Source of the DNA: a virus
Length of the DNA stretch: 43,233 nucleotides
Strand: one strand, 5' to 3'
Virus record (IMG/VR): IMGVR_UViG_3300042114_000008
How positions within the stretch are numbered: position 1 is the first letter of the stretch; each line of letters begins with the position of its first letter. Under the pieces are notes generated by a model, which made no database searches, had not been told where the DNA came from, and was given only the letters and a program-made list of their open reading frames with translations. The position numbers were made by a program, and so were the translations under genes. Shown one piece after another: positions 15,424 through 43,233 of this stretch.

Positions 15424-15468
15424 AAAGTTCCCTTGAGTTATATTCCCAACCTCTCTCAACCAATACAA

Positions 15469-16977: not shown

Positions 16978-16979
16978 AA

Positions 16980-17552: not shown

Positions 17553-17580
17553 CTTATCGCTTATATTCTTTTTAATTGAA

Positions 17581-18395: not shown

Positions 18396-18405
18396 AGATT
18401 ATTCC

Positions 18406-19062: not shown

Positions 19063-19088
19063 ATTTTATTCCTTATTTTAGTTTTATA

Positions 19089-19574: not shown

Positions 19575-19584
19575 TATTGTCCTT

Positions 19585-20593: not shown

Positions 20594-20602
20594 ATATTCT
20601 CC

Positions 20603-22845: not shown

Positions 22846-22928
22846 TAATCTTTCCTTATTATTGCACAAATAAGTATTCCTATTAGGAAACCAAGAAGCA
22901 TTAAATCTACTTGTTCTGAAAATATCAT
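22845..22928 (-). CDS. 27-aa hydrophobic micro-protein (not in the ORF track)
   Basis: Translation: MIFSEQVDLMLLGFLIGILICAIIRKD. A GGAG RBS lies 8 nt upstream. Its ATG overlaps the TGA of the previous micro-ORF, and its TAA overlaps the FEN ATG (TAATG). Confidence 0.4.
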   Translation of the reverse strand: MIFSEQVDLMLLGFLIGILICAIIRKD

Positions 22929-23008
22929 TTTATTACTCCAGTAAATCTAAGAACATTTATAGATAGCAATGTAAATGCTACACCAGCAAAGAATCCTGAA
23001 TAAAACAT
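22925..23008 (-). CDS. 27-aa hydrophobic micro-protein (not in the ORF track)
   Basis: Translation: MFYSGFFAGVAFTLLSINVLRFTGVIK. Its ATG lies 1 nt after the stop of the 762-aa gene. No clear SD, so translation would depend on coupling. Confidence 0.3.
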   Translation of the reverse strand: MFYSGFFAGVAFTLLSINVLRFTGVIK

Positions 23009-23009
23009 A

Positions 23010-25298
23010 TCAATCATCGGTGTGAATACCATATTTATCTATACCTAACCTTTCGTTCATTTGAACATACAGAGAACCCTCTAAGTATCCAGGTCTTGGA
23101 AAGTTTCCAGACTCTTCTATTATGTCCTCTATCATTGACCGAATTTCATCGGCACTAAATCCAAGGTCTACCATATGTGTCATCATCCTGAATAGCCCCA
23201 TATGTAAACCTTGACCTGAAGATACATTGTAGAAGTACTTAAATTCGTTCTTTCTATCTTCCCATAGTAAAGTTCTTCCACCTTTACTTATTCTTGTTAT
23301 CTTTTTAGTTTCAGTAGGAAGTTGTGATACTATTTCAGAAGCCAATAATGGTTCTCCAATATTACTATACACTTCGTTTCCTCTGTATCCATAAAAGAAT
23401 TGTGACTGTGGTAAGTCGTCTATATCTGCACCAATTACTCCAGCTAATGCTTTCATAAAGTGTTTCCATCTAGTAGAGTCAAGCTCTATTTCTATATCTA
23501 ATGGCATTATAATCCTGTATTTATAAGGATTATGGGGGTCTGAACCTCTAGACATATGATAAGTATAATCAGATAGATTATCTCTCATCTCATCTATAGA
23601 TACATCAGTTTTATCTATGTCGAATACTACCCAAGTAGCAGGTGATATGATGTTATCTTTACGACGAATTCCACCTTCAGTTCCTTTAGTATATTCTGAT
23701 ACAGATGCACCCTCTTCTTCAGTTTTAAATCTGAAAGGTATATATGCACAATCATTACATAGTAATTTAGCAAGGTCTGACCATACAGCTTGTTTACATT
23801 TGTATCCAGTTGCTGCTTCTTTTGCTATAGTTTCTTTCGCTACCCTTTTAGCAAGGTCTGGCTCAAGTCCATTTTCTATATTTAAAGCAGTTAGTTCAGC
23901 TACAGATGATACTGCTTTATACGAAGCCCAATGTTCATAATCTATAGTTACTCTACAATGTTCGTGATAAGATAATCGTCCCATTATATACTCAACGTGA
24001 GATGTAGTTCCTAGTTTAGAGTTTGCACCTCTAATAAGAGCTTCTATTTGATTGTCACTCTTTAAGATACGAAGCTTAATAAGTTCGTGAAGAGTAAACA
24101 CTCGTTGAGGTTCTTTGCCAAACATATCTAATACTATCTCGTAAGGCTCTCTTCTTGCCATATTAATAAACTTTGTTAAATCATTAGATGTTAACTCGGC
24201 ACTATATATAGCTTGAAGCATATGTTCTTTTTCTATAGTATGCGACATATCCCATACGGCATATGCACCAGCTAATTTAAAAGCTTTCCAATGTCTATGT
24301 TGTTGCTCAAGAATTCTATGCTCTTCCTCATCAGGAATAAGCTTAGCTTTCTCTGCACACCATATCTCATATTGGTCTTTTAAATCCATACAGTCTTCTG
24401 TAGGAACAATTATATTTAAGTCACTATCTTTAGCTACTAGATTACCAGCTATTTTACAAGATAATTCTCTGATATACTCTTCCTTGTCTTTTAGACTAAG
24501 TTTCTTTTCTTTAAGCTTAGCCATATAAGATTTAACATCTTCAATAGTCTCAGCTTCTTGTCTAAATACAGGATATACAAAGTAACATCTACGAGCTAGC
24601 TTTGAGATAAATTCAGTTTCGAATTTCTTAAGTATTTGTTTTTCCTCAAGAATACCCTTTTCTGAACCAATGAATAAAGCATTCATTCCCATACCTTTGA
24701 CTTCATCACTCTGTTGCTCTTTATCCTTCAGAACTTTAACCTTACAATCTCCAGCATCGAATAACTGAGATACAACTTCGACATTTGGAATAAAGTCCAA
24801 GTTACTATCAATAGCAGTTGATACCTCATCTACTATCATAGACGGTAAACCAATTCCTTCAGCTTTGAAAGAATTAAGGTTTGCCAACAATCCAGGAACT
24901 GTACTTAATGCATTTGATAATGGCATAAGCTTAGGAACTGGAACATCATTCTCCTTTGCAAGTATTTCAGCTTTATTTTTACGAATCATTTGAATTACAT
25001 CTAGCCCAGGTTTAATGATTTTTTCAAGCTTAGTAACAGAAGAAGTTTTCTTAGCTCCAGATTTTGCCAGTATGAATACTATCATATTAGCTGGAACTTG
25101 ATTATCATCTTCTATGTGTATCTTGTAATGGAAATGTCCAACGAAAGATGCCATTGTAAAGTTAGCAATAGCAAGTCCCATAGTATATGGAACATCATCT
25201 CCAAGTACAGATATCATAGCCTCTGCTACTTTATTTTTATTTTTGTCGAAAGCTCCCTCAGCTCTAAGAGAGTCTTCGAACTGCGAAAGTACACTCAT
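23010..25298 (-). CDS. Putative replicative helicase-primase: N-terminal P-loop (DUF3987-like) domain plus a C-terminal archaeo-eukaryotic-primase-like domain
   Basis: 762 aa. ILAKSGAKKTSS is Walker A-like and SMIVDEVSTAID is Walker B-like. The C-terminal WVVFDIDKTD (DxD) and YHMSRGS...YRIIMPLD resemble AEP/prim-pol motifs. It is the largest replication-module ORF. Confidence 0.4.
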   Translation of the reverse strand: MSVLSQFEDSLRAEGAFDKNKNKVAEAMISVLGDDVPYTMGLAIANFTMASFVGHFHYKIHIEDDNQVPANMIVFILAKSGAKKTSSVTKLEKIIKPGLDVIQMIRKNKAEILAKENDVPVPKLMPLSNALSTVPGLLANLNSFKAEGIGLPSMIVDEVSTAIDSNLDFIPNVEVVSQLFDAGDCKVKVLKDKEQQSDEVKGMGMNALFIGSEKGILEEKQILKKFETEFISKLARRCYFVYPVFRQEAETIEDVKSYMAKLKEKKLSLKDKEEYIRELSCKIAGNLVAKDSDLNIIVPTEDCMDLKDQYEIWCAEKAKLIPDEEEHRILEQQHRHWKAFKLAGAYAVWDMSHTIEKEHMLQAIYSAELTSNDLTKFINMARREPYEIVLDMFGKEPQRVFTLHELIKLRILKSDNQIEALIRGANSKLGTTSHVEYIMGRLSYHEHCRVTIDYEHWASYKAVSSVAELTALNIENGLEPDLAKRVAKETIAKEAATGYKCKQAVWSDLAKLLCNDCAYIPFRFKTEEEGASVSEYTKGTEGGIRRKDNIISPATWVVFDIDKTDVSIDEMRDNLSDYTYHMSRGSDPHNPYKYRIIMPLDIEIELDSTRWKHFMKALAGVIGADIDDLPQSQFFYGYRGNEVYSNIGEPLLASEIVSQLPTETKKITRISKGGRTLLWEDRKNEFKYFYNVSSGQGLHMGLFRMMTHMVDLGFSADEIRSMIEDIIEESGNFPRPGYLEGSLYVQMNERLGIDKYGIHTDD

Positions 25299-26854: not shown

Positions 26855-26942
26855 CTTTGTTCCTTATAATGTGTTAATTAGAGATTCTTTGGTTTTGAAT
26901 AACTCACTACTATTATATTCTTTTGATTCTCCATATACATAG

Positions 26943-27071
26943 TTAGTTATGTTTACAGAATCTTCTTTTTATAGTAATGAAAATTGCTTTTATTTTGCTT
27001 GATACAATTTTGTTGTCTTTCATAAAGAACATAACATCATTTACATCGTGTTCAGTTATTATTTTACTCAT
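26943..27071 (-). CDS. 42-aa hypothetical protein (not in the ORF track)
   Basis: Translation: MSKIITEHDVNDVMFFMKDNKIVSSKIKAIFITIKRRFCKHN. It has a strong RBS (AAAGAGGTAAACTATG). Confidence 0.45.
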   Translation of the reverse strand: MSKIITEHDVNDVMFFMKDNKIVSSKIKAIFITIKRRFCKHN

Positions 27072-27246
27072 AGTTTACCTCTTTTATTATTTTTAAACTT
27101 AGTGAATCAGCGTGTCTGCGAGTCACATCGTGGACACAAAGCGTAGCGTAGCGTAGCGACTGTCCTAAGATGTTACGATGCAAGACGAAAGCTGAATGAA
27201 CGATGCAGTGTCTTAGAGTATCTGACCCATTGCCTACAGCTCTCAA
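27064..27246 (-). CDS. Doubtful 60-aa TTG-start ORF inside a GC-rich island. It may instead be a structured RNA or a foreign insert.
   Basis: The frame is open and coupled at both ends: the TTG overlaps the upstream TGA, and the stop overlaps the next ATG. However, it has a TTG start, atypical composition, and a (GCGTA)3 microrepeat at 27140-27158. Confidence 0.3.
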   Translation of the reverse strand: MRAVGNGSDTLRHCIVHSAFVLHRNILGQSLRYATLCVHDVTRRHADSLSLKIIKEVNYE

Positions 27247-27743: not shown

Positions 27744-27961
27744 AGTAATCTACCTTTCCATACTAAGTAAAGCCTAACAATTAATCAATTAATTTTAGGT
27801 ACTCTTAATCCTTTTTATATATTATAATATAATATACCTTAAAGACACCTTAAACTTATAACAAATTGTAAAAAGATTTGTAAATTTATTTATTTATAAT
27901 CTCTTAAGAATTTGTTATCCCATAGAGCAATTACTATTGAACTACGGAAATAACTTCGTAC

Positions 27962-28025
27962 GAATATACAGTGGACTCGAACCACTTTATACATTAGCTT
28001 TATGTACAATCATCCTGAGTATACT
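27962..28025 (-). other. tRNA-like element lacking a D-arm (pseudo-tRNA or tRNA 3'-half remnant)
   Basis: Minus strand reads AGUAUAC-UCAGGAUGAUUG-UACAU-AAAGCUA-AUGUA-UAA-AGUGG-UUCGAGU-CCACU-GUAUAUU-C. The T-arm is canonical (5-bp stem, UUCGAGU loop) and there is a 7-bp acceptor-like pairing. The 5-7-bp stem carries a 7-nt loop that lacks U33. There is no D-arm, and the variable region is 3 nt. Confidence 0.3.
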
Positions 28026-28319
28026 ATGGAGCATCTTGTATTTTACTAGTTGAACCTTCCAGATGCCTGTAACTAAACCTACAGTCAAGTGCACTCGCTA
28101 TAGGACTTTGGTGATAATATCTTGTATGAGTTAAAAAATTAGTAGATATGCCCCATACATATTTTATGGACAAAATAAATTAATTTATCTAGCTAAGTAA
28201 AAATTAAGGTTTGAACAGTAATTTCTAGCTTATATGTAGCTTAATAATTTATACTAATAAAAGTTGTCCAATTTTATATGGTAGGGCATATTTAAAAATT
28301 TTATAGTTGAGCATTAAGA

Positions 28320-29124: not shown

Positions 29125-30204
29125 TTAGCACAATCCATAGATTGAGTTTAAGATATGTTCTCTTAGCAGAGTTTTATATTTCTTTATGTGTTTGTATTTA
29201 CGACCATCTGCGATTTGTTCCATAATTTCGTATAGTAATTCTGAGTCTAGGATTTCACACATAATATCTTTCCATAATCCTATTAGTTCATCTACTTGGT
29301 TGTAGTGACATCCATAAGCATCGTGAATAGTATGTACGAAGAAATCTAGTCCCAGAATAATTCTTCTAGCAATGTATCCATCTATTGAGTGGATTAGGTT
29401 TGGAGCCATTCCAGCATTATATTTTGATGGTTTGTACTCTGTAACAAATCCAGTGTAGTGAAATCTATGTCCAGCTTTAGAAGTTCTTTCTGCTGTAATT
29501 TCATTTTCTGATTTAACATCATATTTAACATTGAATCCATCTGGAAGTGTCCATCTGTATATAGGAATGTGTTCGCTATTTAGCATTTGAATTTTAGCCA
29601 TAGCTTCCATTGCTTTAGGAGCAATAGAGTATAGAGCATCCTCGAATAATTTAGATAGCTCTGTAGTATCAACTTCACTACCGAAGTGTTTTTCCAAGAT
29701 TGGAACAAGAACATCCCAAGCTGATTGTTTACCATATAATGTTGTCATTAATGGTTTCTTTGTATGTTCACGAAGAAGTACATCTTCCTCGCCGATTAAA
29801 TTGTTTAGTTTATCAGCAAGTATTTGATATCCATCAATTCTTTGATGTGGAACATCTCCTATATTGCATACTCTAGCTGTAGATAAATCTCCAGTTAGTA
29901 TAGCATATAGTTGTAGTGCTTGATTTGAACAGTCAACATATTTTAGTCCTGAGACTGGTAGTCCATTCTCGTGCATTACATAATTATATATTGCTACCTG
30001 AAATAGTTTTGGTTCATCAGTATTTTTGAGTATCCACTCTGTGTCCATAAATTTAGCTTTCCATTCGTCTATATTAGCATCGAAGAATTCGTCTAGTTGC
30101 TCGAATAGTATTTTATCGTTACCGAAGTAAGATACTATATCTAGCTTAAGCCAGAATAGTCCTCTTGGTGTTAGCATTTGTTTAGGCATTGTGATTGTAG
30201 ACAT
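29125..30204 (-). CDS. Single-subunit (T7-like) RNA polymerase, catalytic C-terminal subunit (N4 RNAPII large-subunit analogue)
   Basis: 359 aa. VDCSNQALQLYA corresponds to T7 motif A (DGSCSGIQH). REHTKKPLMTTLYGK corresponds to motif B (RxxxKxxxMTxxYG). NLIHSIDGYIARRI...HTIHDAYGCH corresponds to T7 FVHSQDGSHLR...LIHDSFG (motif C). Confidence 0.85.
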   Translation of the reverse strand: MSTITMPKQMLTPRGLFWLKLDIVSYFGNDKILFEQLDEFFDANIDEWKAKFMDTEWILKNTDEPKLFQVAIYNYVMHENGLPVSGLKYVDCSNQALQLYAILTGDLSTARVCNIGDVPHQRIDGYQILADKLNNLIGEEDVLLREHTKKPLMTTLYGKQSAWDVLVPILEKHFGSEVDTTELSKLFEDALYSIAPKAMEAMAKIQMLNSEHIPIYRWTLPDGFNVKYDVKSENEITAERTSKAGHRFHYTGFVTEYKPSKYNAGMAPNLIHSIDGYIARRIILGLDFFVHTIHDAYGCHYNQVDELIGLWKDIMCEILDSELLYEIMEQIADGRKYKHIKKYKTLLREHILNSIYGLC

Positions 30205-30250
30205 ATTAGTTCCTTTAGAATAAGTATTATTGTTCCATTGTCATTATCAA

Positions 30251-30282
30251 TGTAAGTGTAGTTGTAAGGTATATGTAAGGTA
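30251..30282 (-). repeat. Three helically phased direct repeats TGTAAG(T/G)(G/T)TA in the spacer between the two RNAP subunit genes
   Basis: On the + strand: TGTAAGTGTA at 30251, TGTAAGGTA at 30263 and TGTAAGGTA at 30274, spaced 12 and 11 nt apart. The neighbouring hairpin AGTAACA-N13-TGTTACT (30296-30322) overlaps the upstream stop codon. Confidence 0.5.
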
Positions 30283-30317
30283 ATTGGTAATGAATAGTAA
30301 CAATCTGTTTGTCACTG

Positions 30318-31229
30318 TTACTCGAAGTTAGGAATTAGTCCTCCCTTTTTAATTGTGTTACCTTGTGGATTAATATCGTATCCAGTAGAATATATTCTAC
30401 CTCTGAAGTCGAAACGATATTCGAAGTGCATAGGAATTTCTTCCATGGTAGCATAAGTTTCCTCTGTAGATAACAGTAGGTCATTAGCTTTTTTTCTTGA
30501 CATTCTATCTGAATTTCCTTCTGATAGGAATTTGTCGTAGCTATAGTTTAATTCTAGCTCTTCATCTTGTGAGTGTATCCAAGATTGTTTTTGTAGCTTG
30601 TTTAATGCATCTAGCACTAGCTGAGGTTGCTTTTCAGAACCTCTGCCAGTTGTGCATTTACGCTTTGTTAGTTTATATCCTCCTCTTGATTTCTCTGTCC
30701 AATCATCTGGACATTCGATTAGAGGAAGTCTAAATCTATTGTATGTAGCTCTGAGATTTAAGTTCTCTGAGAATAATATCTCTGAACGAAGGTATGTGAA
30801 TGTTGCAAATTGCCCATCTTCCATACGCTTTACAGATTTAACGATGTCATAGAATATTCCATCGAATTCTGCTATGACATCCATAGCTACATTTAGTGAT
30901 TCCTCTTGGAACATTTTATTAAACTCTCTATCAAGATACATAGTTTTAATTACAGTTTCAAGTGGTATATCCCTTGTACTGGCAGTATGACCTTTAACAG
31001 GTATACCGCTCTTGTCATTTCCTAGGATTGACAGAAGTATTATTATTACTTCCATAATTTCTAGGTCTTCAGCTACTATTTCTCTAGCTGATAACATTTC
31101 GTGAAATTGTGGTATATATGAGTATACCGTTTCTGCGAACTCTGCAATTTCTTTGTTTAGCTCTTCGTGGAGCTTTTGGTTATCGAACTCTTGTTCGATT
31201 TGTAGTTGTGTGAGTCCTGCTATGTTCAT
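30318..31229 (-). CDS. Single-subunit (T7-like) RNA polymerase, N-terminal subunit (N4 RNAPII small-subunit analogue)
   Basis: 303 aa ending in FDFRGRIYSTGYDINPQGNTIKKG. This aligns with T7 RNAP MDWRGRVYAVSMFNPQGNDMTKG (DxxGR motif). It is immediately followed, after a 113-nt spacer, by the catalytic subunit gene. Confidence 0.75.
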   Translation of the reverse strand: MNIAGLTQLQIEQEFDNQKLHEELNKEIAEFAETVYSYIPQFHEMLSAREIVAEDLEIMEVIIILLSILGNDKSGIPVKGHTASTRDIPLETVIKTMYLDREFNKMFQEESLNVAMDVIAEFDGIFYDIVKSVKRMEDGQFATFTYLRSEILFSENLNLRATYNRFRLPLIECPDDWTEKSRGGYKLTKRKCTTGRGSEKQPQLVLDALNKLQKQSWIHSQDEELELNYSYDKFLSEGNSDRMSRKKANDLLLSTEETYATMEEIPMHFEYRFDFRGRIYSTGYDINPQGNTIKKGGLIPNFE

Positions 31230-31240
31230 TTGTTATTCCT

Positions 31241-31447
31241 TTAGAATTTGAAGTATTTAGTATCCTCTTTTACAGTCTTAGTAATCTCTGCCTTTAACAT
31301 ATTTACTAAGTCTTCAGATACAACATTGTTTCTCTTACATACTATGAATATTTCTCTGAATATTCTTTTAGCATCTGATAACTCTTGCTGAGACAATTGT
31401 GCATCAGTAGCTTTAGGTTGTTGTTTCTTGTCATTGAATAAACTCAT
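31241..31447 (-). CDS. Hypothetical early protein
   Basis: 68-aa ORF in the early region upstream of the RNAP genes. Confidence 0.5.
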   Translation of the reverse strand: MSLFNDKKQQPKATDAQLSQQELSDAKRIFREIFIVCKRNNVVSEDLVNMLKAEITKTVKEDTKYFKF

Positions 31448-31837: not shown

Positions 31838-31863
31838 TTTATATCCTTTAGATAAATTGGTAT

Positions 31864-32103: not shown

Positions 32104-32126
32104 TGTTAATCCTTTAGATATAATGA

Positions 32127-32516: not shown

Positions 32517-32589
32517 GTTGCCTTTAGCACAGTAACTCTTGTAGACCATATCAGTGTTGATATCCGTTGTATGTACAAGCTTGGCTTGT
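32517..32589 (-). promoter_or_regulatory. Early-gene leader: 20-nt conserved motif plus hairpins
   Basis: Minus strand reads ACAAGC-CAA-GCTTGT (32575-32589; 6-bp stem, 3-nt loop), then ATATCA-ACAC-TGATAT (32548-32563), then GTTACTGTGCTAAAGGCAAC (32517-32536). The last is 17/20 identical to the motif at 31864-31883 and ends 28 nt before the ATG. Confidence 0.45.
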
Positions 32590-33192
32590 GGTGTGTTAGA
32601 GTTGGTTATGTATTGTGTGTTAGATTGGTTGGTAATGGCTTATGTGTTTGCTGTGGTGTTTGAGGGTTCCTCATAACCCTAGCCTTACCATTTCTCCTAC
32701 CATCACATAACAGTGTTAGTGCTTGTAGTAGTAAAAGGAAGCTTAGTACGAATTACTAGCTTAGCATAGGGGGGGGGTGGTGTGGTTTTAGCCAGTTTCA
32801 CAGGCTCTGGGGTTGTGGGGGTTCATTCGTAATTTTTTTTGTGAAATTTTCGAGATATGAGCCACATTCAGTTGTTTTTAAGTTTGCATAAACCACATAT
32901 ATGCAACATAACTTTATATATTACACACATAATATCAACATATTATTATGCAGTAAGCAACATAATACGCACATATTGTATGTAACAAAAATCTCTTTGT
33001 ATTATAAAGGTAGCCAATAGATAGAGAATCCACTGCTGGCTACGGTTGTGGGCTCGACTGTTCTGCCTAACTACGGGTTAACGCAAGATATACAGATGGT
33101 ATATACATAGAAATGACTAGCATTAACTATGGTTGTAGATACGGTGTGTTCAATGGTGTGTGCTATGTGATAGCAGGTGGATTGAAGCACAG
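32590..33192. other. 0.6-kb non-coding block between the last late gene and the first early gene. Candidate genome terminus, terminal repeat or control region.
   Basis: No ORF with an RBS on either strand. It contains G9 (32769-32777), G4 and G5 runs (32809-32821) and T8 (32833-32840). Direct repeats: GTGTGTTAGAGTTGGTT (32591) and GTGTGTTAGATTGGTT (32615), and GCAACATAA twice (32903, 32957). Hairpins lie at 32663-32680, 32739-32762 and 33010-33043. Confidence 0.6.
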
Positions 33193-33393
33193 TTATTTCA
33201 TAACAATCTGTTTGTGAAAATAAGTATCTACTTGATGAAATGTACATATATCAGATGTTGAATAGTGTCCATTTTCATTTGGTTTGAGTCTTATTGGTTT
33301 AGCATTAAGCTCAAGGATTTGTGAGATTACTAGAGAAGCTGGAGCGTTGCTATCGAACTCAACAACTACTCCATTGTCTAGTTGTATTAACAT
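33193..33393 (-). CDS. Hypothetical protein (last gene of the late/lysis operon)
   Basis: 66-aa ORF starting 2 nt after the endolysin stop. Confidence 0.45.
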   Translation of the reverse strand: MLIQLDNGVVVEFDSNAPASLVISQILELNAKPIRLKPNENGHYSTSDICTFHQVDTYFHKQIVMK

Positions 33394-33394
33394 A

Positions 33395-33835
33395 CTAAGC
33401 CTTTAATTCAAAGTGTGGATAGTCTTGTAGTGTGTGCTCAGCAATGTCACCATCGCCATCCCAGTCTGCACCCCATACAAGCTCTACTCCTAATCTCTTA
33501 GCACATTTCATAACAACATCTTTTTGTTTATAAAATCTATCTAAATTGTTCCAATCAACTGGATATGGACAAATGTCGATAGCAAGGCTTGGAAGATGAT
33601 TGTGTTTAGATTTTTTAACAGTACCATCTTTATCGGTTACAGTTTTACCAGTCTTAACCCATCTTCCATTACTAAAGACTCTTCCTTGTTTATAAAGAGC
33701 TAGCTGCTCAGATGGAGTTCTATGTCCAAATACTATAGTAATGTCAAGCTCTTTAATAACTTCTAACATTACTCTTTTAATATCTGGATGACATGTATCT
33801 AATTTAGTTAAAGAAGCTTTACCAAAATTAGGCAT
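33395..33835 (-). CDS. Endolysin, peptidase M15 (VanY / L-alanyl-D-glutamate peptidase type)
   Basis: Motifs: HRTPSEQLALYKQGR, SKHNHLPSLAIDI (SxHxxGxAxD-like zinc site) and DYPHFEL. The start was set at the ATG at 33835, which has an AAAGGAG RBS. Confidence 0.8.
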   Translation of the reverse strand: MPNFGKASLTKLDTCHPDIKRVMLEVIKELDITIVFGHRTPSEQLALYKQGRVFSNGRWVKTGKTVTDKDGTVKKSKHNHLPSLAIDICPYPVDWNNLDRFYKQKDVVMKCAKRLGVELVWGADWDGDGDIAEHTLQDYPHFELKA

Positions 33836-34058
33836 TGAATGTCTCCTTTCTAAGTTCGTTATATGCTTCATTGAACATATCAGCTCTAGTTGGATTAGCT
33901 TTTGATTTAGCTATTCCATCAATCATAATAGTTGCTATATCTTTTGTAATACCATCAGATGTATCAGTTAATAATCTATTAATACCATATCCAATAGCAG
34001 ATTTAGCAACCTCAGTTCCAGCAACTCTTAAGAGAAATTGCAATATAAATGTTAACAT
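33828..34058 (-). CDS. Small lysis-cassette protein with a hydrophobic N-terminus (holin candidate)
   Basis: 76 aa beginning MLTFILQFLLRVAG, directly upstream of the endolysin and overlapping it. Confidence 0.3.
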   Translation of the reverse strand: MLTFILQFLLRVAGTEVAKSAIGYGINRLLTDTSDGITKDIATIMIDGIAKSKANPTRADMFNEAYNELRKETFNA

Positions 34059-34067
34059 AAGATTCCT

Positions 34068-34343
34068 TTACTTAATAACAAGACCAAGTAATGCAACTAT
34101 TACTGCGCTAATGACAATCCAATTAACCTTCCTAAGCGAATCTTCAATATCATCAAGCCTAGCATTTGCAACTTTTTGTCTTTCTTGAAGAACTCCAACT
34201 TCTGTGTTTACACGATTATGAAATTCATCACCTTTCTCTATACTAGCAGCAAGCTTATTAAGCGTTGCATCAAGATGAGTTAACTTCTCTGCTAATATAA
34301 TAGAATTTACGTCAGTTGTTCTTCTTTCTTGAAGTGGTGGCAT
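34068..34343 (-). CDS. Small coiled-coil protein with a C-terminal TM anchor (holin or lysis-accessory candidate)
   Basis: 91 aa ending VNWIVISAVIVALLGLVIK. It lies between the giant virion protein gene and the endolysin. Confidence 0.3.
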   Translation of the reverse strand: MPPLQERRTTDVNSIILAEKLTHLDATLNKLAASIEKGDEFHNRVNTEVGVLQERQKVANARLDDIEDSLRKVNWIVISAVIVALLGLVIK

Positions 34344-34380: not shown

Positions 34381-37300
34381 TTATTCTCCTTCGTTTCTGT
34401 ATTCTCTTATAGATTTATATCTAGTCTTGTCATATGGTGTATCGTACTTAGGAGCGTCTGTGTTGTCCTCGCTAGTAGCACTGTATGTGCTTTCATTAGA
34501 ACCTATGCTAGAGGTATCATTATCTTTCAGATAAGTCTGTTTGTCATCAGATACCTCGCCTACTTCATCAGAAGCAAATGCATCATATATCATCTGAACT
34601 ACTCCACGATTATCAACATACTCTCCATCAGAATTTCTATATGGAGCAAGTCTATCTTTCCATAACAAGTCAGGCTCAGTTATTGGATTACGAACTACTT
34701 CATCATCCATATAGTATGCTCCTTGTTTGTAAATGTCTCTGTATACTCCAGGAATTAACTTGTGTATATTTCTAGTTTCATATAGAGCACCATCTCCAGT
34801 TACGAAACCATATGGCATATCAACTAAAGATTCAACTGGAGACACAGAGCTAAGATGTGTATTAGTCTCATCACTAAGATATAGAATACTAAGAGCTATA
34901 GCAGCAGCTTTTAATGGATTATGCTTAACAGTTTTAGCAACAGCAGGCAATACAGAAGCAGCCCACTTAGCAAATACAGCTAATCCATACTTATCAATAG
35001 CATCAATAAACACTGGAGCTATCTCATCCATTTGACCGAACATATCATTTGTTCTCATCATAGCATCGATATTGTTTGAACCAGAGTCTTTAAATCCACG
35101 GTACATCATATATCTAGCTTGGAAGTCAAGGTAAGAGAAAGCGTCCTTAGCAAATCCACCAGTTATTGCATTTTGATTAAACATAATTTCATTTGTTATT
35201 CTATCTAAATGTCCACCAGTTAATTCACTAAGCATATTATTAAGCATTGAACCATTAGTTCTAACACCGTCTAATGTATTGATCGACAATCCATCTTTAA
35301 GCATTTGTACTACTTCATTATCTCTATACTTAGCTATAAGTTCAGGAGTTAATTTACCTTGTGCAGTAGCTAAATCAAATTCAGCAGTAATAGCTTTGAA
35401 TTCTCTCCAGGCTCCAATAGCATCTTTATTGTATCTTAATGCCTTAATTGGATTACCGTGAGCTAACATATGGTAGCTATACGACACTAGAAAGGCATTC
35501 TTAAAGGAACTTAAATTCTTCAAAACATTACTCTGTTTAAATATTGACACTGTATCTTTAAGTAATCTATCAGCTACTTTAAGACCATAGCTAGTATCAG
35601 CATTAGATAAACTAAATTCATTACGACCTATTAGTTTATCCTTGAATTCTTTGTTTACATATACAATTTCATCTCTAGCAAACTTAGGCAATCTATACGA
35701 TTCTTCAAGTGATAACTTAACGAATCCATCTTGCTTATTTTTACTAAACATAGATTTGAATGTATCATCACTATGTGTCAATATCTCTGTGAAAGTATTT
35801 AGTTGAGCATCTTTTCTTCTGAGTGTAGCTTCAGTATTACCAAGCATCATAGCTAAGTCTCGTTTAAGACCCATCTTAGTTCTTATTTCTAAATCAGCAA
35901 CACTCATAAATCCTCTAGCAGATACTTTAAGTCCGTGCTTCTCTGCATATTCATAAGGATTAGCAACATCAGTTACTTTAATTCCTTTGACATCTTCTCC
36001 AACTTTAGCTGACATACTATCAAAACCAAGTGCTCCTGCTTCAAGTTTAGGATCTGCATCGTGTACATATCGTTTCATCTTGTTATCCCAAATCTTAGGA
36101 TTATCAAATGAATCTTGTATATACCCTTTTTGCATAAGATTTAAGTCATTAGTAAATGCAAATATAGCAGTACTTCTATCTTTCATGCTTTTGGCAATAG
36201 ATAGCAAGTCTTGTACTTCAGCAGTATCAACATTCTTAGCATACCATTCCCATCCATCTACATTGTCCATAGCTTTAATTGAAATCATTTGGTCAATGAT
36301 ATCTTCATATCCTTTTAGATTGTAATGTTCAGCTATAACACTAGCATTATTAGCATAGAATCCTCTTTGGTTTTCACCTCTACCTATTCCATATGTACTT
36401 GCATCTATATGCTTTTGCATTCTAGAATATAGTTGATAGTGGTCTGCAAACCAAACATCAGCTTCAGCCTTACTCTTTATACCACGAAGTCCAATAGCGT
36501 CAGTAAAGAATACATTTCTCATATATTCATCTTGATTCTTATCTTTCAATAACTTCTGGATATGCTTAGTAAGTCTATCACCAGCTTCATCAGCCAATTT
36601 CTTAGACGGTGTTGTTATTCCTAATATTTTAGAAAATGTCTTATGTTCTTTAGAGTATTCATATTTATTCTTAAGATGCTTACCAGTATCACTTATAGAA
36701 TCCAAGAATTCTTTAAGCATACCTTTATGTTCAGCATTTAAGTTTTTGTTTACTCCATCGTATGCAGTTTCTCCATACTTTTTTGAAGCTTCTCTTAATG
36801 CAGATAATTGCTCATCTACTATATGAGATTCTCTCCATTTAGTTTGCATCTCTGCAAATGCTGGATTCTTTTCAGCCATATCGTCAAGAATACTCTCAAC
36901 TTTATTGTAAACTATAATGTCAAAACCATTAACTTTATCAAGAGTATCTTCTATAGACTTCCATATACCATTAGCTCTTGGAGACATATCTCCAGACTTA
37001 GATTTAAAGAAATCAAATATTCTCTTAGCATTACCAGCAAATGAAGCTTTGTCAAATCCAGATTTCATACCTTCGCTAAACGATTGTTTCGCTTGTTCAG
37101 AACCAGCTTCAGCATTCTTAAGTCTTTCAGCCTCTTCTAATACTTTACGAATTTCTTCGTCAAACATATCGAACTTACCAGCTTCAGTTTTAATTGCATC
37201 ATCAATTTGTTCAGATGGAATATCAATAGGCTTTCCACTTGTAATAGCTTCATCTATTGATTTAGCTGTAGCAGTACCAGATTCTAATACTTCACTTGCA

Positions 37301-40300
37301 GTCTGTCCTCTAGTTCCAGAACCGCTAGACATAATGTCATTAGCTAGCTTATTTCTAATCTCTCTAATTCCAGACATCTTAGTTCCAACTGGATATCCTC
37401 TTTCAGTGAAGAATTGTCTATCACCTTTAATTGATGATTTAAGATTTGGATTATATTCAACTCCAGCTCTAAATCTATTATACAGATATTCATTAGCAGA
37501 TTTCCAAGCACCTTTGCTAACTCCATCTGGAGCAGGTATCATAGTTTTCTCACTAAATCCTTTACCTTGAATTGCAAGAGCTAATTGTCTTTCAAATACA
37601 TCGTCTCCAGCTTTTGGTATAGACACTTTAGTATGAACGATTTCATCAATCATAGCATCTACTATTGTATGATGCTCTTGATTTCTGTGAGTCATTGTAG
37701 TCATATATGAAATCATTGTTTCAATCTTAGTCATACCAGTTGCTGGAACCATTTCACTCCAAGGCTTTTTAACTATCTCTTTAACTTCGTTTTGAAAATC
37801 TTCTACCTTCAAGAATTCTCTGCTTTTATCTTTAAAGATTTTATCTAAATTTCCTTTACGAGGCATATCAATTTTACCTTCACTAAGTTCTTTAATAGCC
37901 TTATTACCAAAGTCTTCATCTTGTAATTGTTTCATAAGACTTCTGTATTTAGCATCAACTTCTTTTCGCATTTCTTTTGGATAGGTTATTGCATCGTGTT
38001 TAGTCTGAAGATTTAAATCTTTTCTAATTGTACGAGCAATCCAAGCATCAATACTATGAATAAATCTAGGCATTAAAGCCTTAGAAAATTCATCTTTAGT
38101 ACCATTTACTATATTAACTTTACCAATAGTTTTAGTTTTTCCACCTGATGTTTCAACTATGTTATAAGTCTTATATCCAGACAATTCTATTTCAACTTTC
38201 TTACCGTCAGGTAATGTCCAAGAGAATTTACCAGTAGTGTTAGCTTTAAATACTTCATCCATCTTTTTAGCAAATTCTCCAATAGCAGGAACTTCTTTAG
38301 CCATTGCAGAGTAATACTCTTGCACAAACTTATTAGCATTATCAATTGTTTTAAGCCAAGGTAAATCAGCAAGTGCAGCCTCTGCAGTACCTTTCTCCAT
38401 AGAGCCATACATATCAGGAGTATATACTGTCTTAACATCATCTTTACTTACAGCCGAACCTTTTAGATTCTCAAAGAAACCGTCGTCAGCTTTATTAATA
38501 TGATTTCCAACAGTCTCTCTGAAGTCAATTCCATCTGCTTTCTTAAATACTCTTTGTGCAAGCTTAACATCTCCAGTGATTACAGATATAAGAGCAGCAA
38601 CACTATTAACAGCGTCACTAGTCTCTTCTGAATGCTTAATTTTAAAGACATTCTCTTTATCAGTTAATCCTAATTTATTAGAATTATAATCTTTAAGCAA
38701 TGTATTAAACTCTATATTAGCAGCTTCCTTAGTTTTAGCAACATCTTTTGCTGGAACATTTGGCATATGCTTATCTACAAGCAATATTCTTGCTCTTCCA
38801 ACATCTTTGAAAAAGTCAGGATTAGCGTCTATATCTCTCTTCTCAGATAGACTAAGTTTATATTCGAAAGGTCTTTCAGCATTTTTACTATATCTATCAA
38901 GTATTCCTTTTTCTATATAATCAGCAACTGCTTGTCTCTTGTTAACTATTACTTTGTTTTTTTCATAGTCAAACTCAAATGACTTATCTTTTGCAATACC
39001 TCTTTTTTCTTTGATAGATTTAACTGATACTTTTCTAGGAATTACCATTATATCATCATAAGCTTTAGTTCTTGCTTCACCAAATTTACTAACTTCATCA
39101 GCAGTAGTTAATTTACCAGCTACTTGTTCTCGTGCAGAGAATTCTTTATCAAGTCTTTTAGACTCTCTAAATGCTAGTTCATCAGACTTAATCTCGCCAT
39201 TATTGAAAGCAGTCACATCGTACAGTCTGTTTCTATGTCCCTCTAGTTCAGCAACTCCTTGTGGAAATTTATACTTAACATTATCAGGTATATTGTTTAT
39301 GTCTAGGTTTTCTCTTGGAAATGCAAGTTTTGCCTTAATCTTTAAATCATCAGATGCTTTAAGCATTGCAGTCTTATCGACTTTATCAATTACAGCTTTA
39401 GCAATAAGTGGACCTCTAGCATCTTCAGATAGTGAATGATATTTTTCGGTATGATATGCAGCAGTTCCACCAGCTTTATTTTTGTTAGCATCTGATGCAA
39501 GTTTAAACTCAGTTTTAATATTACTTGAATAATCTATTGGTTCATACTCTGATATCTTAGCATTTTCAACTTTAGATTTAACTGCATTATCTATATCGTC
39601 TTTAGTTGGTATAGTTATGTTATTAGCTCTAGCTTCTGCATATAATGCTCTTTTTCTATAGAGTTGTTTTTGAGTATCATCAGTAACTTTATCAGCAATT
39701 TGATTATACAATTTAGACTCAAATTTATCTCTAAGTTGAACTTTCTCAATATCAGATAGATTTTTAGTAGATTTTATTTTAGCTTCTGTCTTACCATAAG
39801 CATCAAGATTGTTTACAGCTTTGCCGAAAGATTTCATTGCATCATCTGCATATGCATCTTCTTGTCCAGCTTTCATACGGTTAAGTTTAAGCGATGCAGC
39901 TTGACTATCTCCACCTAAATGAGATGTGAGATAATCACTAGCATACTGTCTACCACCAGTATCAGTAAAGGTTTCTTGTAATTTACTACCTCCAGGTAGA
40001 ATAACTTCATCTTTCTTCTTAAATCCTTCAAGTCTTCTCTTTTCAGCAATGCTTCTAACCTTAGGGTCTACCACTTCTTGAGTCTTAATACCTTTTTTCA
40101 TAGTTCTAGTTTTATCAGTAACAACTGCAGGACCACCTTTAGGAGAACCTTCAGTATCTACAACATAATTCTTTAATGATGTTCCAGTGTATTTTTTAAC
40201 TGCAGTATCAAGACCTTCTACTCCAACTTCTAAAATATCAGCAGCAATCTCACGTGCTATAGGCTTAGCTATTTCAAATGCATTACTAACTTTATCTTTT

Positions 40301-41130
40301 ACTTTTTGAGTAGCAGTTGGAAGCGGAGCATCAACTCCAGTTCCACCGAATTTTCTAGAAGTAAAATCATAAGCTCTCATTAATGGTGCAGTACCAGCAG
40401 TACCAACAAATCCTACTGATGCATCAAGTAATGTTCTTTGCGCAATAGTATCTGGGTCTTCTTGAAGAACTGCTCCAACACCAGTTCCTACTGCTCCTAG
40501 TTTTAAAGCATTAGATGTAGCATCTTTAAGAAGAGCACCTCTAAGTTCAGACTTATAATCTTGTTTCATAAATTTAAGAGCATCATCAGATACAAAGTGT
40601 GCAGTAACATTATCAGCCAATTCTTTAGGCTTAGCATTTAGTGCGATTCTTGTATTAGACATAGCTCCAATTTTATAAAACGGAAGATATGCAACAGCTT
40701 CTGCTGCAAGTCCAGTAATATCTGAACCTAGTGTACTTCCACGATTTGCTACTTCTCTTTTAAAATCAAGATTAGCTTTAGTTGCAACATCAGATAACTT
40801 ATCTGTAATATCTGGAGTAGCATCATATGAAAATGGTTGAGTAATAGCACTTCCAATAGCTTGGAATATGCTAGAGTCTTTGTTTGTTTTTACAAAATTA
40901 TCTGCAAATCTTTCAGGATTCATAGCATTTTCAATTACATTTCCAGTGCTAGAAATTCCTTTCATTAAAACATTACCAATAGTTGGAGTTATAGTTTCAA
41001 GAACTCCAACTTTCTTATCTCCTGCAATTCTACTTGCTTCGTCAAATCCATACTTAAGCTCATTTTCACGCATTTGTTTCGGAGTTAAGTATCCTCCTGT
41101 GTAAGCAGGAGCTTTTTCTAAATTAGCCAT
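34381..41130 (-). CDS. Giant virion-associated protein with a central T7-like single-subunit RNA polymerase domain (N4 vRNAP analogue)
   Basis: 2249 aa. SKDDVKTVYTPDMYGS is motif B-like. MPRFIHSIDAWIARTIRKDLNLQTKHDAITYP parallels NLIHSIDGYIARRI...IHDAYG of the 359-aa RNAP subunit and T7 FVHSQDGSHLR...IHDSFG. It sits in the late/virion operon at the position of the T7 internal core proteins. Confidence 0.7.
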   Translation of the reverse strand: MANLEKAPAYTGGYLTPKQMRENELKYGFDEASRIAGDKKVGVLETITPTIGNVLMKGISSTGNVIENAMNPERFADNFVKTNKDSSIFQAIGSAITQPFSYDATPDITDKLSDVATKANLDFKREVANRGSTLGSDITGLAAEAVAYLPFYKIGAMSNTRIALNAKPKELADNVTAHFVSDDALKFMKQDYKSELRGALLKDATSNALKLGAVGTGVGAVLQEDPDTIAQRTLLDASVGFVGTAGTAPLMRAYDFTSRKFGGTGVDAPLPTATQKVKDKVSNAFEIAKPIAREIAADILEVGVEGLDTAVKKYTGTSLKNYVVDTEGSPKGGPAVVTDKTRTMKKGIKTQEVVDPKVRSIAEKRRLEGFKKKDEVILPGGSKLQETFTDTGGRQYASDYLTSHLGGDSQAASLKLNRMKAGQEDAYADDAMKSFGKAVNNLDAYGKTEAKIKSTKNLSDIEKVQLRDKFESKLYNQIADKVTDDTQKQLYRKRALYAEARANNITIPTKDDIDNAVKSKVENAKISEYEPIDYSSNIKTEFKLASDANKNKAGGTAAYHTEKYHSLSEDARGPLIAKAVIDKVDKTAMLKASDDLKIKAKLAFPRENLDINNIPDNVKYKFPQGVAELEGHRNRLYDVTAFNNGEIKSDELAFRESKRLDKEFSAREQVAGKLTTADEVSKFGEARTKAYDDIMVIPRKVSVKSIKEKRGIAKDKSFEFDYEKNKVIVNKRQAVADYIEKGILDRYSKNAERPFEYKLSLSEKRDIDANPDFFKDVGRARILLVDKHMPNVPAKDVAKTKEAANIEFNTLLKDYNSNKLGLTDKENVFKIKHSEETSDAVNSVAALISVITGDVKLAQRVFKKADGIDFRETVGNHINKADDGFFENLKGSAVSKDDVKTVYTPDMYGSMEKGTAEAALADLPWLKTIDNANKFVQEYYSAMAKEVPAIGEFAKKMDEVFKANTTGKFSWTLPDGKKVEIELSGYKTYNIVETSGGKTKTIGKVNIVNGTKDEFSKALMPRFIHSIDAWIARTIRKDLNLQTKHDAITYPKEMRKEVDAKYRSLMKQLQDEDFGNKAIKELSEGKIDMPRKGNLDKIFKDKSREFLKVEDFQNEVKEIVKKPWSEMVPATGMTKIETMISYMTTMTHRNQEHHTIVDAMIDEIVHTKVSIPKAGDDVFERQLALAIQGKGFSEKTMIPAPDGVSKGAWKSANEYLYNRFRAGVEYNPNLKSSIKGDRQFFTERGYPVGTKMSGIREIRNKLANDIMSSGSGTRGQTASEVLESGTATAKSIDEAITSGKPIDIPSEQIDDAIKTEAGKFDMFDEEIRKVLEEAERLKNAEAGSEQAKQSFSEGMKSGFDKASFAGNAKRIFDFFKSKSGDMSPRANGIWKSIEDTLDKVNGFDIIVYNKVESILDDMAEKNPAFAEMQTKWRESHIVDEQLSALREASKKYGETAYDGVNKNLNAEHKGMLKEFLDSISDTGKHLKNKYEYSKEHKTFSKILGITTPSKKLADEAGDRLTKHIQKLLKDKNQDEYMRNVFFTDAIGLRGIKSKAEADVWFADHYQLYSRMQKHIDASTYGIGRGENQRGFYANNASVIAEHYNLKGYEDIIDQMISIKAMDNVDGWEWYAKNVDTAEVQDLLSIAKSMKDRSTAIFAFTNDLNLMQKGYIQDSFDNPKIWDNKMKRYVHDADPKLEAGALGFDSMSAKVGEDVKGIKVTDVANPYEYAEKHGLKVSARGFMSVADLEIRTKMGLKRDLAMMLGNTEATLRRKDAQLNTFTEILTHSDDTFKSMFSKNKQDGFVKLSLEESYRLPKFARDEIVYVNKEFKDKLIGRNEFSLSNADTSYGLKVADRLLKDTVSIFKQSNVLKNLSSFKNAFLVSYSYHMLAHGNPIKALRYNKDAIGAWREFKAITAEFDLATAQGKLTPELIAKYRDNEVVQMLKDGLSINTLDGVRTNGSMLNNMLSELTGGHLDRITNEIMFNQNAITGGFAKDAFSYLDFQARYMMYRGFKDSGSNNIDAMMRTNDMFGQMDEIAPVFIDAIDKYGLAVFAKWAASVLPAVAKTVKHNPLKAAAIALSILYLSDETNTHLSSVSPVESLVDMPYGFVTGDGALYETRNIHKLIPGVYRDIYKQGAYYMDDEVVRNPITEPDLLWKDRLAPYRNSDGEYVDNRGVVQMIYDAFASDEVGEVSDDKQTYLKDNDTSSIGSNESTYSATSEDNTDAPKYDTPYDKTRYKSIREYRNEGE

Positions 41131-41139
41131 ATAGCAACC

Positions 41140-42138
41140 TTATTTTTTCTTTTGTTTAATTAAGACGTTATTAACTCCAGGAGCATTAGTCTCATCAATA
41201 GTATAATTATCAGCAACAAAGTTATAGAATGCATTTTGAATTTGGTCTTCGTTATAAGATTTAAATTCAGGTCTTCGTGTAATAATATCATTAAATTTAT
41301 TTGTAGCATCTTGTAGATTTGAAAGACTTTGTTCTCCAACTACAGTTTTTGGAACAATTGAATTACCAATAGAATCAAGTAGTCCTCTTGGTACTTTCTG
41401 ATGAAATGCATTGAATGCGGTAGCAGGTTTCTTAATAAGTCCACCTTCTACACCACTATCAACTTTGCCTTGAGCAATCTTTTCAGTAGGAACGTGTTTA
41501 TCAAATATACTAGGAGGAGGACTTCCTTTAGGTTGAGTAATTCCAGTATTAACATTTTGAACCATATTCTGATTCTTAGTATTCTCAAGAGTTACAGCAT
41601 TTGTTCCATATTGTTTAGCATTTTGCATTCCTGCATCGGCAGTATATTTACTAGACGCTAAAGAATTATTAGATACAAAAGCATCAGCGTTAGCTTTAAT
41701 GCTAGCACCTTGTACGGAAGCATTAGCAGATACTTGACTAGAAGCAAGACTATACTTACCAGTAATCTCAGCCTTTTCTTTCTCAGTAGTTGCCTTAAGC
41801 ATTTCGGCTTGATAATCAGACTCAAGTTTAGACATCTTAGCAGCATAATCTAATTTATGACCAGCCATAGCAGCATCAAAAACTTTTAATGCATTTTCTT
41901 TAGAAGCATTAGCTGTAGTATTCGCTACATCTAGAGTTCCTTGATTTTGTAATAATTGTTCTTGAAGCTTATTTTGTGCTAGTGCTGCAGCAGCTTTTTT
42001 AGTATCATCTGCAGCAAACTGGTTAGTAACTACTTTCTGCATACCACCTAAAGCATTATTCATAAGCAATGTATCTTGAGCAGTTCCTTGAAAATTGACT
42101 TGTCCACTTGGAGCAGCTATGTTTCTATTAAATACCAT
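41140..42138 (-). CDS. Virion protein (possible internal/ejection protein)
   Basis: 332 aa, A/Q/N/S-rich, immediately upstream of the giant RNAP-containing protein. Confidence 0.35.
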   Translation of the reverse strand: MVFNRNIAAPSGQVNFQGTAQDTLLMNNALGGMQKVVTNQFAADDTKKAAAALAQNKLQEQLLQNQGTLDVANTTANASKENALKVFDAAMAGHKLDYAAKMSKLESDYQAEMLKATTEKEKAEITGKYSLASSQVSANASVQGASIKANADAFVSNNSLASSKYTADAGMQNAKQYGTNAVTLENTKNQNMVQNVNTGITQPKGSPPPSIFDKHVPTEKIAQGKVDSGVEGGLIKKPATAFNAFHQKVPRGLLDSIGNSIVPKTVVGEQSLSNLQDATNKFNDIITRRPEFKSYNEDQIQNAFYNFVADNYTIDETNAPGVNNVLIKQKKK

Positions 42139-42147
42139 GGATACTCC

Positions 42148-42828
42148 TTATTTAATATTCTGAAGTCTAGTTGTTTCTGCAGCTTTGCGAGCATTATAAT
42201 CAACTTGAGCTTGAGGACTTGTATCTCTAGAAGTCCAATCAATAGCAGACAGTCCAGCCTTATCATCAATAAATTGACCATATTGCTTATTCATCATATC
42301 TCTGTTGTAGGCATTGTTAGCTTTAGTTTCTTTAAGAGAAGCTCTAGAATTCATATAACCTAATCCTTGAAATAATGCACTTGCAGTATTTTTAAAAGCA
42401 TCAGTTCCTACGAAATCTTTAATAGCTGTACCACTACCAGTTAACGGACCCCAGTCAAAGTTGAAGCTTGATGTAGATTCTGGAGTATTTTGTTGAATTC
42501 CTGGAACTACAAATGCTTCATTTGAGGTATCTAATATATTATCTACAGCAGGATAATCAGAACTATATTTGTATGGAGATTTAACACCATCTAAAACACT
42601 AATTCCACCAGCTCCAAGTCCAGTAAAATCAGTAATATTAGACGGAGTTAAATAATTACTTGATTGTTGAAGCATATCACTAGGATTGTATTTTGCAGTA
42701 GAATAATCAAAACCGCTATCTCCAATTCCTCTCCATAATTCATCAGTCTTTATAGTCTTAACTGGAGCGTTAGGATTCTTTGTTGCAATTTTTCCTGCGT
42801 ATTTCTTTTTGTTTTCAGGTTTTGCCAT
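42148..42828 (-). CDS. Virion protein (possible internal/ejection protein)
   Basis: 226-aa ORF in the late operon. It shares the stop-RBS-start junction TAAGGTTGC(C/T)ATATGGC with the giant gene. Confidence 0.35.
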   Translation of the reverse strand: MAKPENKKKYAGKIATKNPNAPVKTIKTDELWRGIGDSGFDYSTAKYNPSDMLQQSSNYLTPSNITDFTGLGAGGISVLDGVKSPYKYSSDYPAVDNILDTSNEAFVVPGIQQNTPESTSSFNFDWGPLTGSGTAIKDFVGTDAFKNTASALFQGLGYMNSRASLKETKANNAYNRDMMNKQYGQFIDDKAGLSAIDWTSRDTSPQAQVDYNARKAAETTRLQNIK

Positions 42829-42837
42829 ATGGCAACC

Positions 42838-43233
42838 TTACAGCACTACAGATACTGCATATAAAGGTTCATTTACTTCTTTAGCAAAACCTTTTTCATC
42901 AACTCCGTGAGAAATTCTTGTCGCTTCTTGTAAGAACTTAACAATTCCTTGTGGCAATAACACTTCAGTGTTTTGTTGAAAGTCAAATGTAAATTCATTA
43001 ATAGAAACAAATATAGAATGTTTCTTTTCAGCAGAAGATAAACTATGAACTTTAACTTTAGTCAATTCTCCAAGAGGATGAACTTTCTTAGTTTCTGCAG
43101 GTTTTTGTGCAGTTGTTTCTGCAGGTTTTTGTGCAGTTGTTTCTGCAGGTTTTTGTGCAGTTGTTTCTGCAGGTTTTTGTGCAGTTGTTTCTGCAGGTTT
43201 TTGTGCAGTTGTTTCTGCAGGTTTTTGTGCAGT
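42838..43233 (-). CDS. 3' part of the boundary-spanning gene: AQKPAETT repeats, then ...QKPAETKKVHPLGELTKVKVHSL... and a 75-aa C-terminal domain
   Basis: The frame of track ORF 42838..43065 (TTG-started in the track) stays open upstream through the repeat array to 43233. It is the same frame as the repeats at 1..136. Confidence 0.7.
   Translation of the reverse strand, partial: TAQKPAETTAQKPAETTAQKPAETTAQKPAETTAQKPAETTAQKPAETKKVHPLGELTKVKVHSLSSAEKKHSIFVSINEFTFDFQQNTEVLLPQGIVKFLQEATRISHGVDEKGFAKEVNEPLYAVSVVL
43091..43233 (-). repeat. 24-nt tandem array: a 19-nt partial unit, five perfect units and 4 nt
   Basis: Units begin at 43110, 43134, 43158, 43182 and 43206. Positions 43110-43229 are identical to 1-120. 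Confidence 0.95.

Follow-up and report, generated by a model that had tools for sequence, protein, structure and literature searches.

Virion-packaged single-subunit RNA polymerases (RNAPs) are treated as a hallmark of one phage family, the Schitoviridae. The role of the virion RNAP (vRNAP) of phage N4, gp50, in early transcription is published, and its C-terminal domain (CTD) has been reported to be necessary for encapsidation and to autoinhibit the polymerase (Pol) domain (PMC13492108, PMC13434306); lack of cysteine has been described as a trait of vRNAPs (PMC3821669, PMC10747016). N4 also encodes a non-virion enzyme, RNAPII, a heterodimer of gp15 and gp16 (PDB 6dt7). Here we describe a gene of the IMG/VR virus record IMGVR_UViG_3300042114_000008 (43,233 nt, analysed whole and called the window below) that encodes a protein of 2249 amino acids (aa). 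An initial annotation had proposed it as an injected virion polymerase with a T7-like core, and the coordinates, strand and length given there for the open reading frame (ORF) were exact. We put the probability that this protein is a packaged, ejected and active early RNA polymerase, a compact homologue of the N4-type vRNAPs, at about three in four.

The gene starts with ATG, 9 nt past the stop codon of the upstream gene and behind a ribosome-binding site AAGG. Local phmmer comparison of the protein with its homologues finds two conserved blocks (aa ~380-1260 and aa ~1475-2110) and a variable N-terminus. The gene and its parts are as follows.

34381..41130, minus strand: whole ORF, 2249 aa plus stop; putative compact vRNAP homologue, with ~30 representative clusters in its family
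39991..41130, minus strand: variable N-terminal region (aa 1-380), which in relatives serves as a cargo slot
39883..39963, minus strand: T/DxxGR element, DTGGRQY...GG...K, aa 390-416; R394 nearly invariant; aligns with T7 414-449
38671..39861, minus strand: insertion of ~400 aa that separates DxxGR from motif A, predicted to be mostly helical from the secondary structure and pLDDT of an AlphaFold (AF2) model
37831..38670, minus strand: palm and fingers core (aa 821-1100); holds motifs A, B and C plus a specificity-loop-like beta-hairpin at aa 968-1012
38581..38625, minus strand: motif A, ETSDAVNSVAALISV; D839 invariant; of T7/RNAPII type, not the Schitoviridae ExDGxxxG
38401..38445, minus strand: motif B, KDDVKTVYTPDMYGS; K896, K900, Y908 and G909 correspond to T7 R627, K631, Y639 and G640
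37978..38070, minus strand: PRFIHSIDAW...KHDAITYP; H1025 and D1028 correspond to T7 H784 and D787, and motif C, H1045-D1046, to T7 H811-D812
37231..37830, minus strand: conserved post-palm extension, aa 1101-1300; R1221 and E1225 invariant
36709..37230, minus strand: linker of low conservation, aa 1301-1474
34801..36708, minus strand: CTD, aa 1475-2110; homologue of the N4 gp50 CTD (N4 aa ~2698-3450) by profile and model comparison, and the best-conserved block of the family
34384..34800, minus strand: C-terminal tail (aa 2111-2249) with a high content of D, Y, E, S and T; final ~60 aa predicted to be disordered

The link to gp50 comes from the CTD. We took seven Schitoviridae vRNAPs from GenBank, aligned them and set this alignment against that of the family with hhalign, which matches aa 1481-~2080 to N4 2698-~3450 (probability 99.7%, E 1.7e-26). 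An AF2 model of aa 1440-2249 (pLDDT 79, pTM 0.78), searched with Foldseek against the PDB, gave two significant matches only, and both are cryo-EM structures of N4 gp50: 9pnt (E 2.6e-6) and 9pnr (E 7e-6). The next-best PDB match of the same model stood at E 0.26. We regard this homology, seen alike in profile alignment and in the predicted fold, as the decisive new evidence for kinship with the vRNAPs. Weak colinear hhalign matches were also found at gp50 motif B (N4 1663-1689) and motif C (N4 1882-1958). Searches with the whole protein, by BLASTP against N4 gp50 and by phmmer against the PDB, gave nothing useful. The regions flanking the Pol block had been described as about one third shorter, which does not hold uniformly: the N-terminal region has ~380 aa against ~920-1000 in N4, and the part after the Pol block has ~940 aa against ~1400.

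All four T7-type RNAP motifs are present in the 2249-aa protein, namely DxxGR (R394), A (D839), B (K900/Y908) and C (H1045-D1046), in an order colinear with both T7 RNAP and RNAPII. The initial annotation had quoted two peptides, KTVYTPDMYGS (aa 900-910) and RFIHSIDAWIARTI...KHDAITYP (aa 1022-1051), and had taken them as kin to motifs B and C of T7 RNAP and of a 359-aa RNAP subunit encoded in the same window. Both peptides are there, and the kinship is borne out: the 359-aa subunit matches the 2249-aa protein by BLASTP at E 2e-9 over aa 839-1086 (248 residues), and the Pol block matches T7 RNAP 623-846 by hhalign at E 1.9e-6. Motif A, SDAVNSVAAL including D839, and the T/DxxGR element had not been listed there.

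The 359-aa protein, an RNAPII-like large subunit, is the closest relative of the catalytic core. By hhalign the Pol block matches RNAPII large subunits at E 3.3e-26, and the DxxGR element resembles the C-terminus of the RNAPII small subunit (E 2e-4). A profile of the family searched against PDB sequences retrieved N4 RNAPII gp16 (6dt7_B) at E 6e-13 and T7 RNAP at E 0.013-0.05, and left the N4 mini-vRNAP unmatched. The PHROG family phrog_2051, annotated as RNA polymerase, matches the 2249-aa protein at E 4e-11; neither of the Pfam RNA_pol families PF00940 and PF14700 matches it, nor does any Pfam family at E <= 0.1. A simple gp50 orthologue with a shortened Pol domain is ruled out by this core, which is RNAPII/T7-like and has no gp50 signature.

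The residues corresponding to the T7 catalytic residues are R394 (T7 R425), D839 (D537), K896/K900 (R627/K631), Y908 (Y639), H1025 (H784) and D1046 (D812). They are invariant or nearly so in the family, with the exception of H1025 (His or Gln). When 21-28 members are aligned, the invariant or nearly invariant positions are R394, D839, R871, K896, K900, Y908, G909, P1021, S1026, D1028, H1045, D1046, R1221 and E1225; of these, D839, R871, K900, Y908, H1045 and D1046 do not vary at all in 21-27 homologues. Overall identity among the aligned homologues that keep the catalytic residues is 18-41%, and the retention of both catalytic Asp residues and of the rNTP-discriminating Tyr at such divergence argues for an active polymerase. 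The spacing from DxxGR to motif A is ~445 residues here, against ~110 in T7 and ~135 in N4; the ~400-aa insertion that this reflects, predicted with good confidence to be mostly helical, is specific to this family, and D638 and R659 are conserved within it.

An AF2 model of aa 370-1310 (pLDDT 83.2, pTM 0.81) was searched with Foldseek, as the initial annotation had proposed, and the similarity reaches beyond the short motifs: single-subunit RNAPs (mitochondrial, T7 and N4 RNAPII) make up all of the 50 PDB matches listed, at E 5e-7 to 3e-5. Among its matches in BFVD, phage T7-like RNAPs come first and family A DNA polymerases after them; fragments of vRNAPs match weakly.

The 2249-aa protein contains no cysteine, where ~17 would be expected at the 0.78% found in the other proteins of the window. 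The same holds for 27 of the 28 family members and for all seven N4-type vRNAPs, as well as for the two upstream neighbours of 226 and 332 aa.

Homologues of the 2249-aa protein are of metagenomic origin only. An exhaustive HMMER search with aa 450-1649 against 1.84 billion representatives gave 47 matches; ~30 of them are clusters whose proteins have 1400-2940 aa and show 25-37% identity, and the rest are weak matches to ordinary RNAPs of 350-660 aa. Family lengths are mostly 1870-2940 aa. Word-indexed protein search, even with a profile, returned near-identical copies only, and tblastn with the 2249-aa protein, and also with the homologue P0031, found no family member in 50,697 GenBank phage records. 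Ten family clusters were looked up, and none is named in any source. One homologue, P0010 (contig L006, 6867-14192), carries an ART-PolyVal ADP-ribosyltransferase toxin domain at aa 278-427 of its variable N-terminal region. Its presence there suggests that injected effector cargo can be accommodated in the N-terminal region; such a domain is typical of proteins delivered with incoming DNA.

The window corresponds to a circularly cut phage genome (~43.1 kb) with a 100-nt end overlap (1-100 = 43134-43233), and all of its genes lie on the minus strand. Read along that strand, the order runs from a C/A-rich stretch (~33190-32580) through small early genes, a split RNAPII and replication genes to the terminase and tail genes, the portal (2254-4296), the scaffold and the major capsid protein (MCP; 210-1256). 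It continues across the junction with a tandem-repeat ORF, the 226-aa, 332-aa and 2249-aa proteins and a lysis cassette. The position that had been claimed for the gene, after the capsid gene and two A/Q/N-rich proteins, is obtained in the window only when it is read circularly; contigs from other samples display the order directly (MCP, small ORF, 226 aa, 332 aa, big protein). The neighbours that concern us are these.

41140..42138, minus strand: 332-aa A/Q/N-rich protein without Cys, directly upstream; candidate ejection protein at the N4 gp51 position, by synteny
42148..42828, minus strand: 226-aa protein without Cys; candidate ejection protein at the N4 gp52 position, by synteny
30318..31229, minus strand: RNAPII-like small subunit, 303 aa, with the end DFRGRIY..NPQG; phrog_2166 'N4-like RNA polymerase' at E 2e-16; kept in relatives
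29125..30204, minus strand: RNAPII-like large subunit, 359 aa; Pfam RNA_pol at 3.6e-18; ~33% identity to N4-like RNAP2
32579..33192, minus strand: C/A-rich stretch without coding sequence that separates the lysis genes from the first early genes; putative genome end and site of early promoters

The gene order from portal, scaffold and MCP to the big protein is kept in all ten IMG/VR relative contigs (24-47 kb, six of them 40.5-46.8 kb) and in 4/4 other contigs, and in each relative whose flank is long enough (3/3) a split RNAPII follows downstream, encoded on the same strand. With a vRNAP-family gene and a split RNAPII conserved together, the N4 cascade (vRNAP, RNAPII, host polymerase) appears to be maintained in the lineage. 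The best GenBank phage matches of the portal are Alteromonas AD45 podophages and Schitoviridae ('N4 gp59-like') at 24-28% identity, which makes this phage distantly related to N4; its genome is 40% smaller.

Several further observations concern the rest of the genome. At the junction (1-209 and 42838-43233) the overlap falls inside an ORF of ~140 aa with seven N-terminal AQKPAETT repeats; this is the ORF between the capsid and 226-aa genes, and several assemblies from other samples also break there. The replication module (14263-25298) encodes an N4-like primase (762 aa), an exonuclease (280 aa), Sak4/AAA_24 (19874-20593), an SSB (218 aa) and a ligase (288 aa); no DNA polymerase or helicase gene was recognised in the window. 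The lysis cassette (33193-34343) comes right after the big gene and comprises an XhlA-like 91-aa protein, a 76-aa ORF, a Peptidase_M15_4 endolysin (146-158 aa) and a 66-aa ORF. In three relatives the MCP gene is seemingly interrupted (L005 6166-8199, L019 1831-3181, L024 41-1864); in L005 an HNH_3/DUF723 endonuclease ORF lies between the MCP fragments, and a homing endonuclease or an intron may be involved. Two long gaps have no convincing ORFs (27744-28319 and 26855-27242); a T-loop-like GGTTCGAGTCCAC occurs in them, as does a (GCTAC)3 run. ARAGORN and Rfam were negative for these gaps, and in the window as a whole ARAGORN found no tRNA and no Rfam family was matched.

Upstream of the early genes, the C/A-rich stretch (32579-33192, ~600 nt) includes a run of poly-C, shows a locally reversed GC skew and may be a physical genome end; an AT-rich block with repeated ATATGTTG precedes it. 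Some contigs from other samples end within this stretch, at ~32745 and 32824, and others break in the tandem-repeat ORF. If the genome ended near 32.75-32.82 kb, the early genes would be terminal, as they are in N4; given the competing breaks in the repeat ORF, these contig ends are not decisive. A strongly conserved Shine-Dalgarno context, TCTAAAGGA, stands before early genes (for example at 32110-32125, 31845-31860, 31235-31250 and 30210-30225); such a context argues against a Bacteroidota host despite the 33% GC content of the window.

Several results weigh against reading the 2249-aa protein as an N4-type early polymerase. The similarity of its Pol block to the gp50 Pol domain is marginal (hhalign E 5e-4). 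ExDGxxxG, the signature of motif A in the Schitoviridae, was found in 7/7 of their vRNAPs and in 0/28 members of this family. The Foldseek TM-scores of the Pol model are low (0.21-0.27 on the query), which we attribute to a multi-domain model with a large insertion. Upstream of DxxGR, hhalign with aa 1-389 found no counterpart of the T7/RNAPII N-terminal promoter-binding domain or thumb, and no similarity to the T7 N-terminal domain, the RNAPII small subunits or the N4 N-terminal domain; autonomous promoter recognition is to that extent unproven. In the early region, searches for inverted repeats and repeated 16-mers found no N4-type hairpin promoter and no repeated promoter-like motif, and a low-power search of six early regions (the window and five relatives) found no repeated hairpin family. 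As for the companions of the big protein, we considered whether the 332-aa and 226-aa proteins are homologues of N4 gp51 and gp52, and this is unsupported: a BLAST match of the N-terminus is weak (E 0.04) and hhalign is negative.

Set against the CTD homology and the single-subunit RNAP fold, these points modify the proposal of an N4 virion polymerase more than they undo it. The proposal is supported, and what has to be given up is a gp50-like catalytic core, as the core is far nearer to N4 RNAPII and T7 RNAP than to the gp50 Pol domain. We infer the packaging, the ejection, the transcription of early genes and the promoter type of this protein. As an early polymerase carried in the virion it would be made late, from the structural operon, and its CTD would direct it into the capsid. 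On infection the chain, loosely folded and devoid of cysteine, would be ejected by way of the tail along with the 226-aa and 332-aa proteins, and in the cytoplasm its T7-type core would transcribe the first-entering early genes independently of the host polymerase. Those genes would include the split RNAPII-like polymerase (303 + 359 aa), which would then take over middle transcription.

A protein that is packaged and ejected need not be there to run a transcription programme. Its polymerase might act mainly as a genome-pulling motor, or have some other non-programmatic role, with host RNAP making the early mRNAs. In T7, transcription is coupled to DNA entry, which counts for this view, as does the failure of our searches to find a phage-specific promoter motif or a recognisable N-terminal promoter-binding domain of RNAPs. 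A coupling of transcription and DNA entry is also discussed for the N4 vRNAP (PMC13492108). Against this view, sigma-70-like promoters are not enriched in the early region (28 found vs 34.8 expected); moreover the genome keeps an RNAPII-like enzyme, as in the three-polymerase cascade of N4, and the protein retains the specificity-loop-like beta-hairpin. We consider a motor-like role unlikely.

The closeness of the catalytic core to the non-virion RNAPII could instead mean that the protein is itself a polymerase absent from the virion, such as a late or middle transcriptase, and just happens to share a domain with gp50. This is improbable, in that the shared domain is homologous to the one reported to be needed for encapsidation of gp50 (PMC13492108), the protein is free of cysteine, the position of its gene among the virion genes is conserved, one homologue bears a fused toxin domain, and the genome already has a separate RNAPII. 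Still less probable, to our minds, is an internal virion or ejection protein with a catalytically dead relic of a polymerase domain. The absence of a Pfam RNA_pol match at any threshold, the large insertion in the domain and the very divergent flanks would suit such a relic, but the catalytic Asp pair, the Lys and Tyr of motif B and His1045 stay invariant down to 18% identity, which would not be expected of one. A delivered and active early polymerase thus remains our preferred account.

A wider proposal, which we offer tentatively and with the odds somewhat against it, joins these observations into an unrecognised, uncultured sister lineage of the Schitoviridae with one-strand genomes of ~40-47 kb, no DNA polymerase gene having been found in this window. 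Its injected polymerase would preserve ancestral active-site motifs of T7/RNAPII type, and the ~400-aa helical insertion, in a protein that lacks a canonical N-terminal domain, would provide a new mode of promoter recognition. If this were true, virion polymerases would have arisen by duplication of an RNAPII-like gene and fusion to an ejection/encapsidation module. The largest metagenomic survey of Schitoviridae discarded candidates of <2500 aa or without ExDGxxxG (PMC10654107), and with those filters this family would have been excluded.

Should the 2249-aa protein be an injected early polymerase, polymerase injection would be more widespread than thought and would work in genomes 40% smaller, which suggests a reach beyond the known N4 family. 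The enzyme would be more tractable than the 383-kDa gp50 for studying how a polymerase passes through a tail channel of ~30-35 Å. The family would also bridge the divergent gp50 Pol domain and the ordinary T7/RNAPII enzymes, and the origin of vRNAPs would become testable by phylogeny. The ~900-aa Pol fragment is, in addition, a candidate for a new orthogonal RNA polymerase.

The protein may be compared with several described systems. With T7 gp14-gp16 and other podophage ejection proteins it shares the post-capsid position, large size and a presumed route of ejection; this likeness rests on position, no sequence or domain similarity having been sought or found, and T7 gp16 has no polymerase. 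The T7 and mitochondrial RNAPs (PF00940) share with it the four motifs, the equivalents of H784 and D787, the specificity-loop-like beta-hairpin and the fold matches. In contrast to them it falls below Pfam detection, shows no similarity to their N-terminal domain and is ~2.5 times larger; it is also probably delivered with the virion, whereas T7 RNAP is made after infection.

N4 RNAPII is the described enzyme whose sequence is closest to the catalytic core, and the DxxGR element corresponds to the C-terminus of its small subunit. Unlike this heterodimer, the 2249-aa protein is one chain without a detectable equivalent of most of the small subunit, and it has the helical insertion and a CTD of gp50 type. 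Its gene lies in the late virion operon, whereas RNAPII is an early/middle enzyme, encoded here by a separate pair of genes at 29125-31229.

The differences from N4 and gp50 are considerable. The protein has 2249 aa against ~3500 in gp50, its N-terminal region ~380 aa against ~920-1000, and its Pol domain is barely similar, with the ~400-aa helical insertion after DxxGR. Motif A is of the type DAxNSxxxL and not ExDGxxxG, and HSxD and HD(A/S) are kept where N4 has GTGD and FDG. The genome of ~43 kb has all genes on one strand, compared with ~70 kb in two orientations in N4, and neither a DNA polymerase gene nor hairpin promoters were found here. Other features are shared. Like the vRNAPs of the Schitoviridae (~2840-3820 aa), it carries a single-chain polymerase of T7 type between long N- and C-terminal regions. 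With gp50 itself it shares the homologous CTD, freedom from cysteine and a gene position in the late virion block, where the portal and capsid genes come first and genes for small proteins stand between those for the capsid and the polymerase. The genome, like that of N4, also encodes RNAPII, an N4-like portal, a primase, an exonuclease, Sak4 and an SSB. The protein appears to be best described as a new compact variant of the virion RNAP with a core of T7/RNAPII type.

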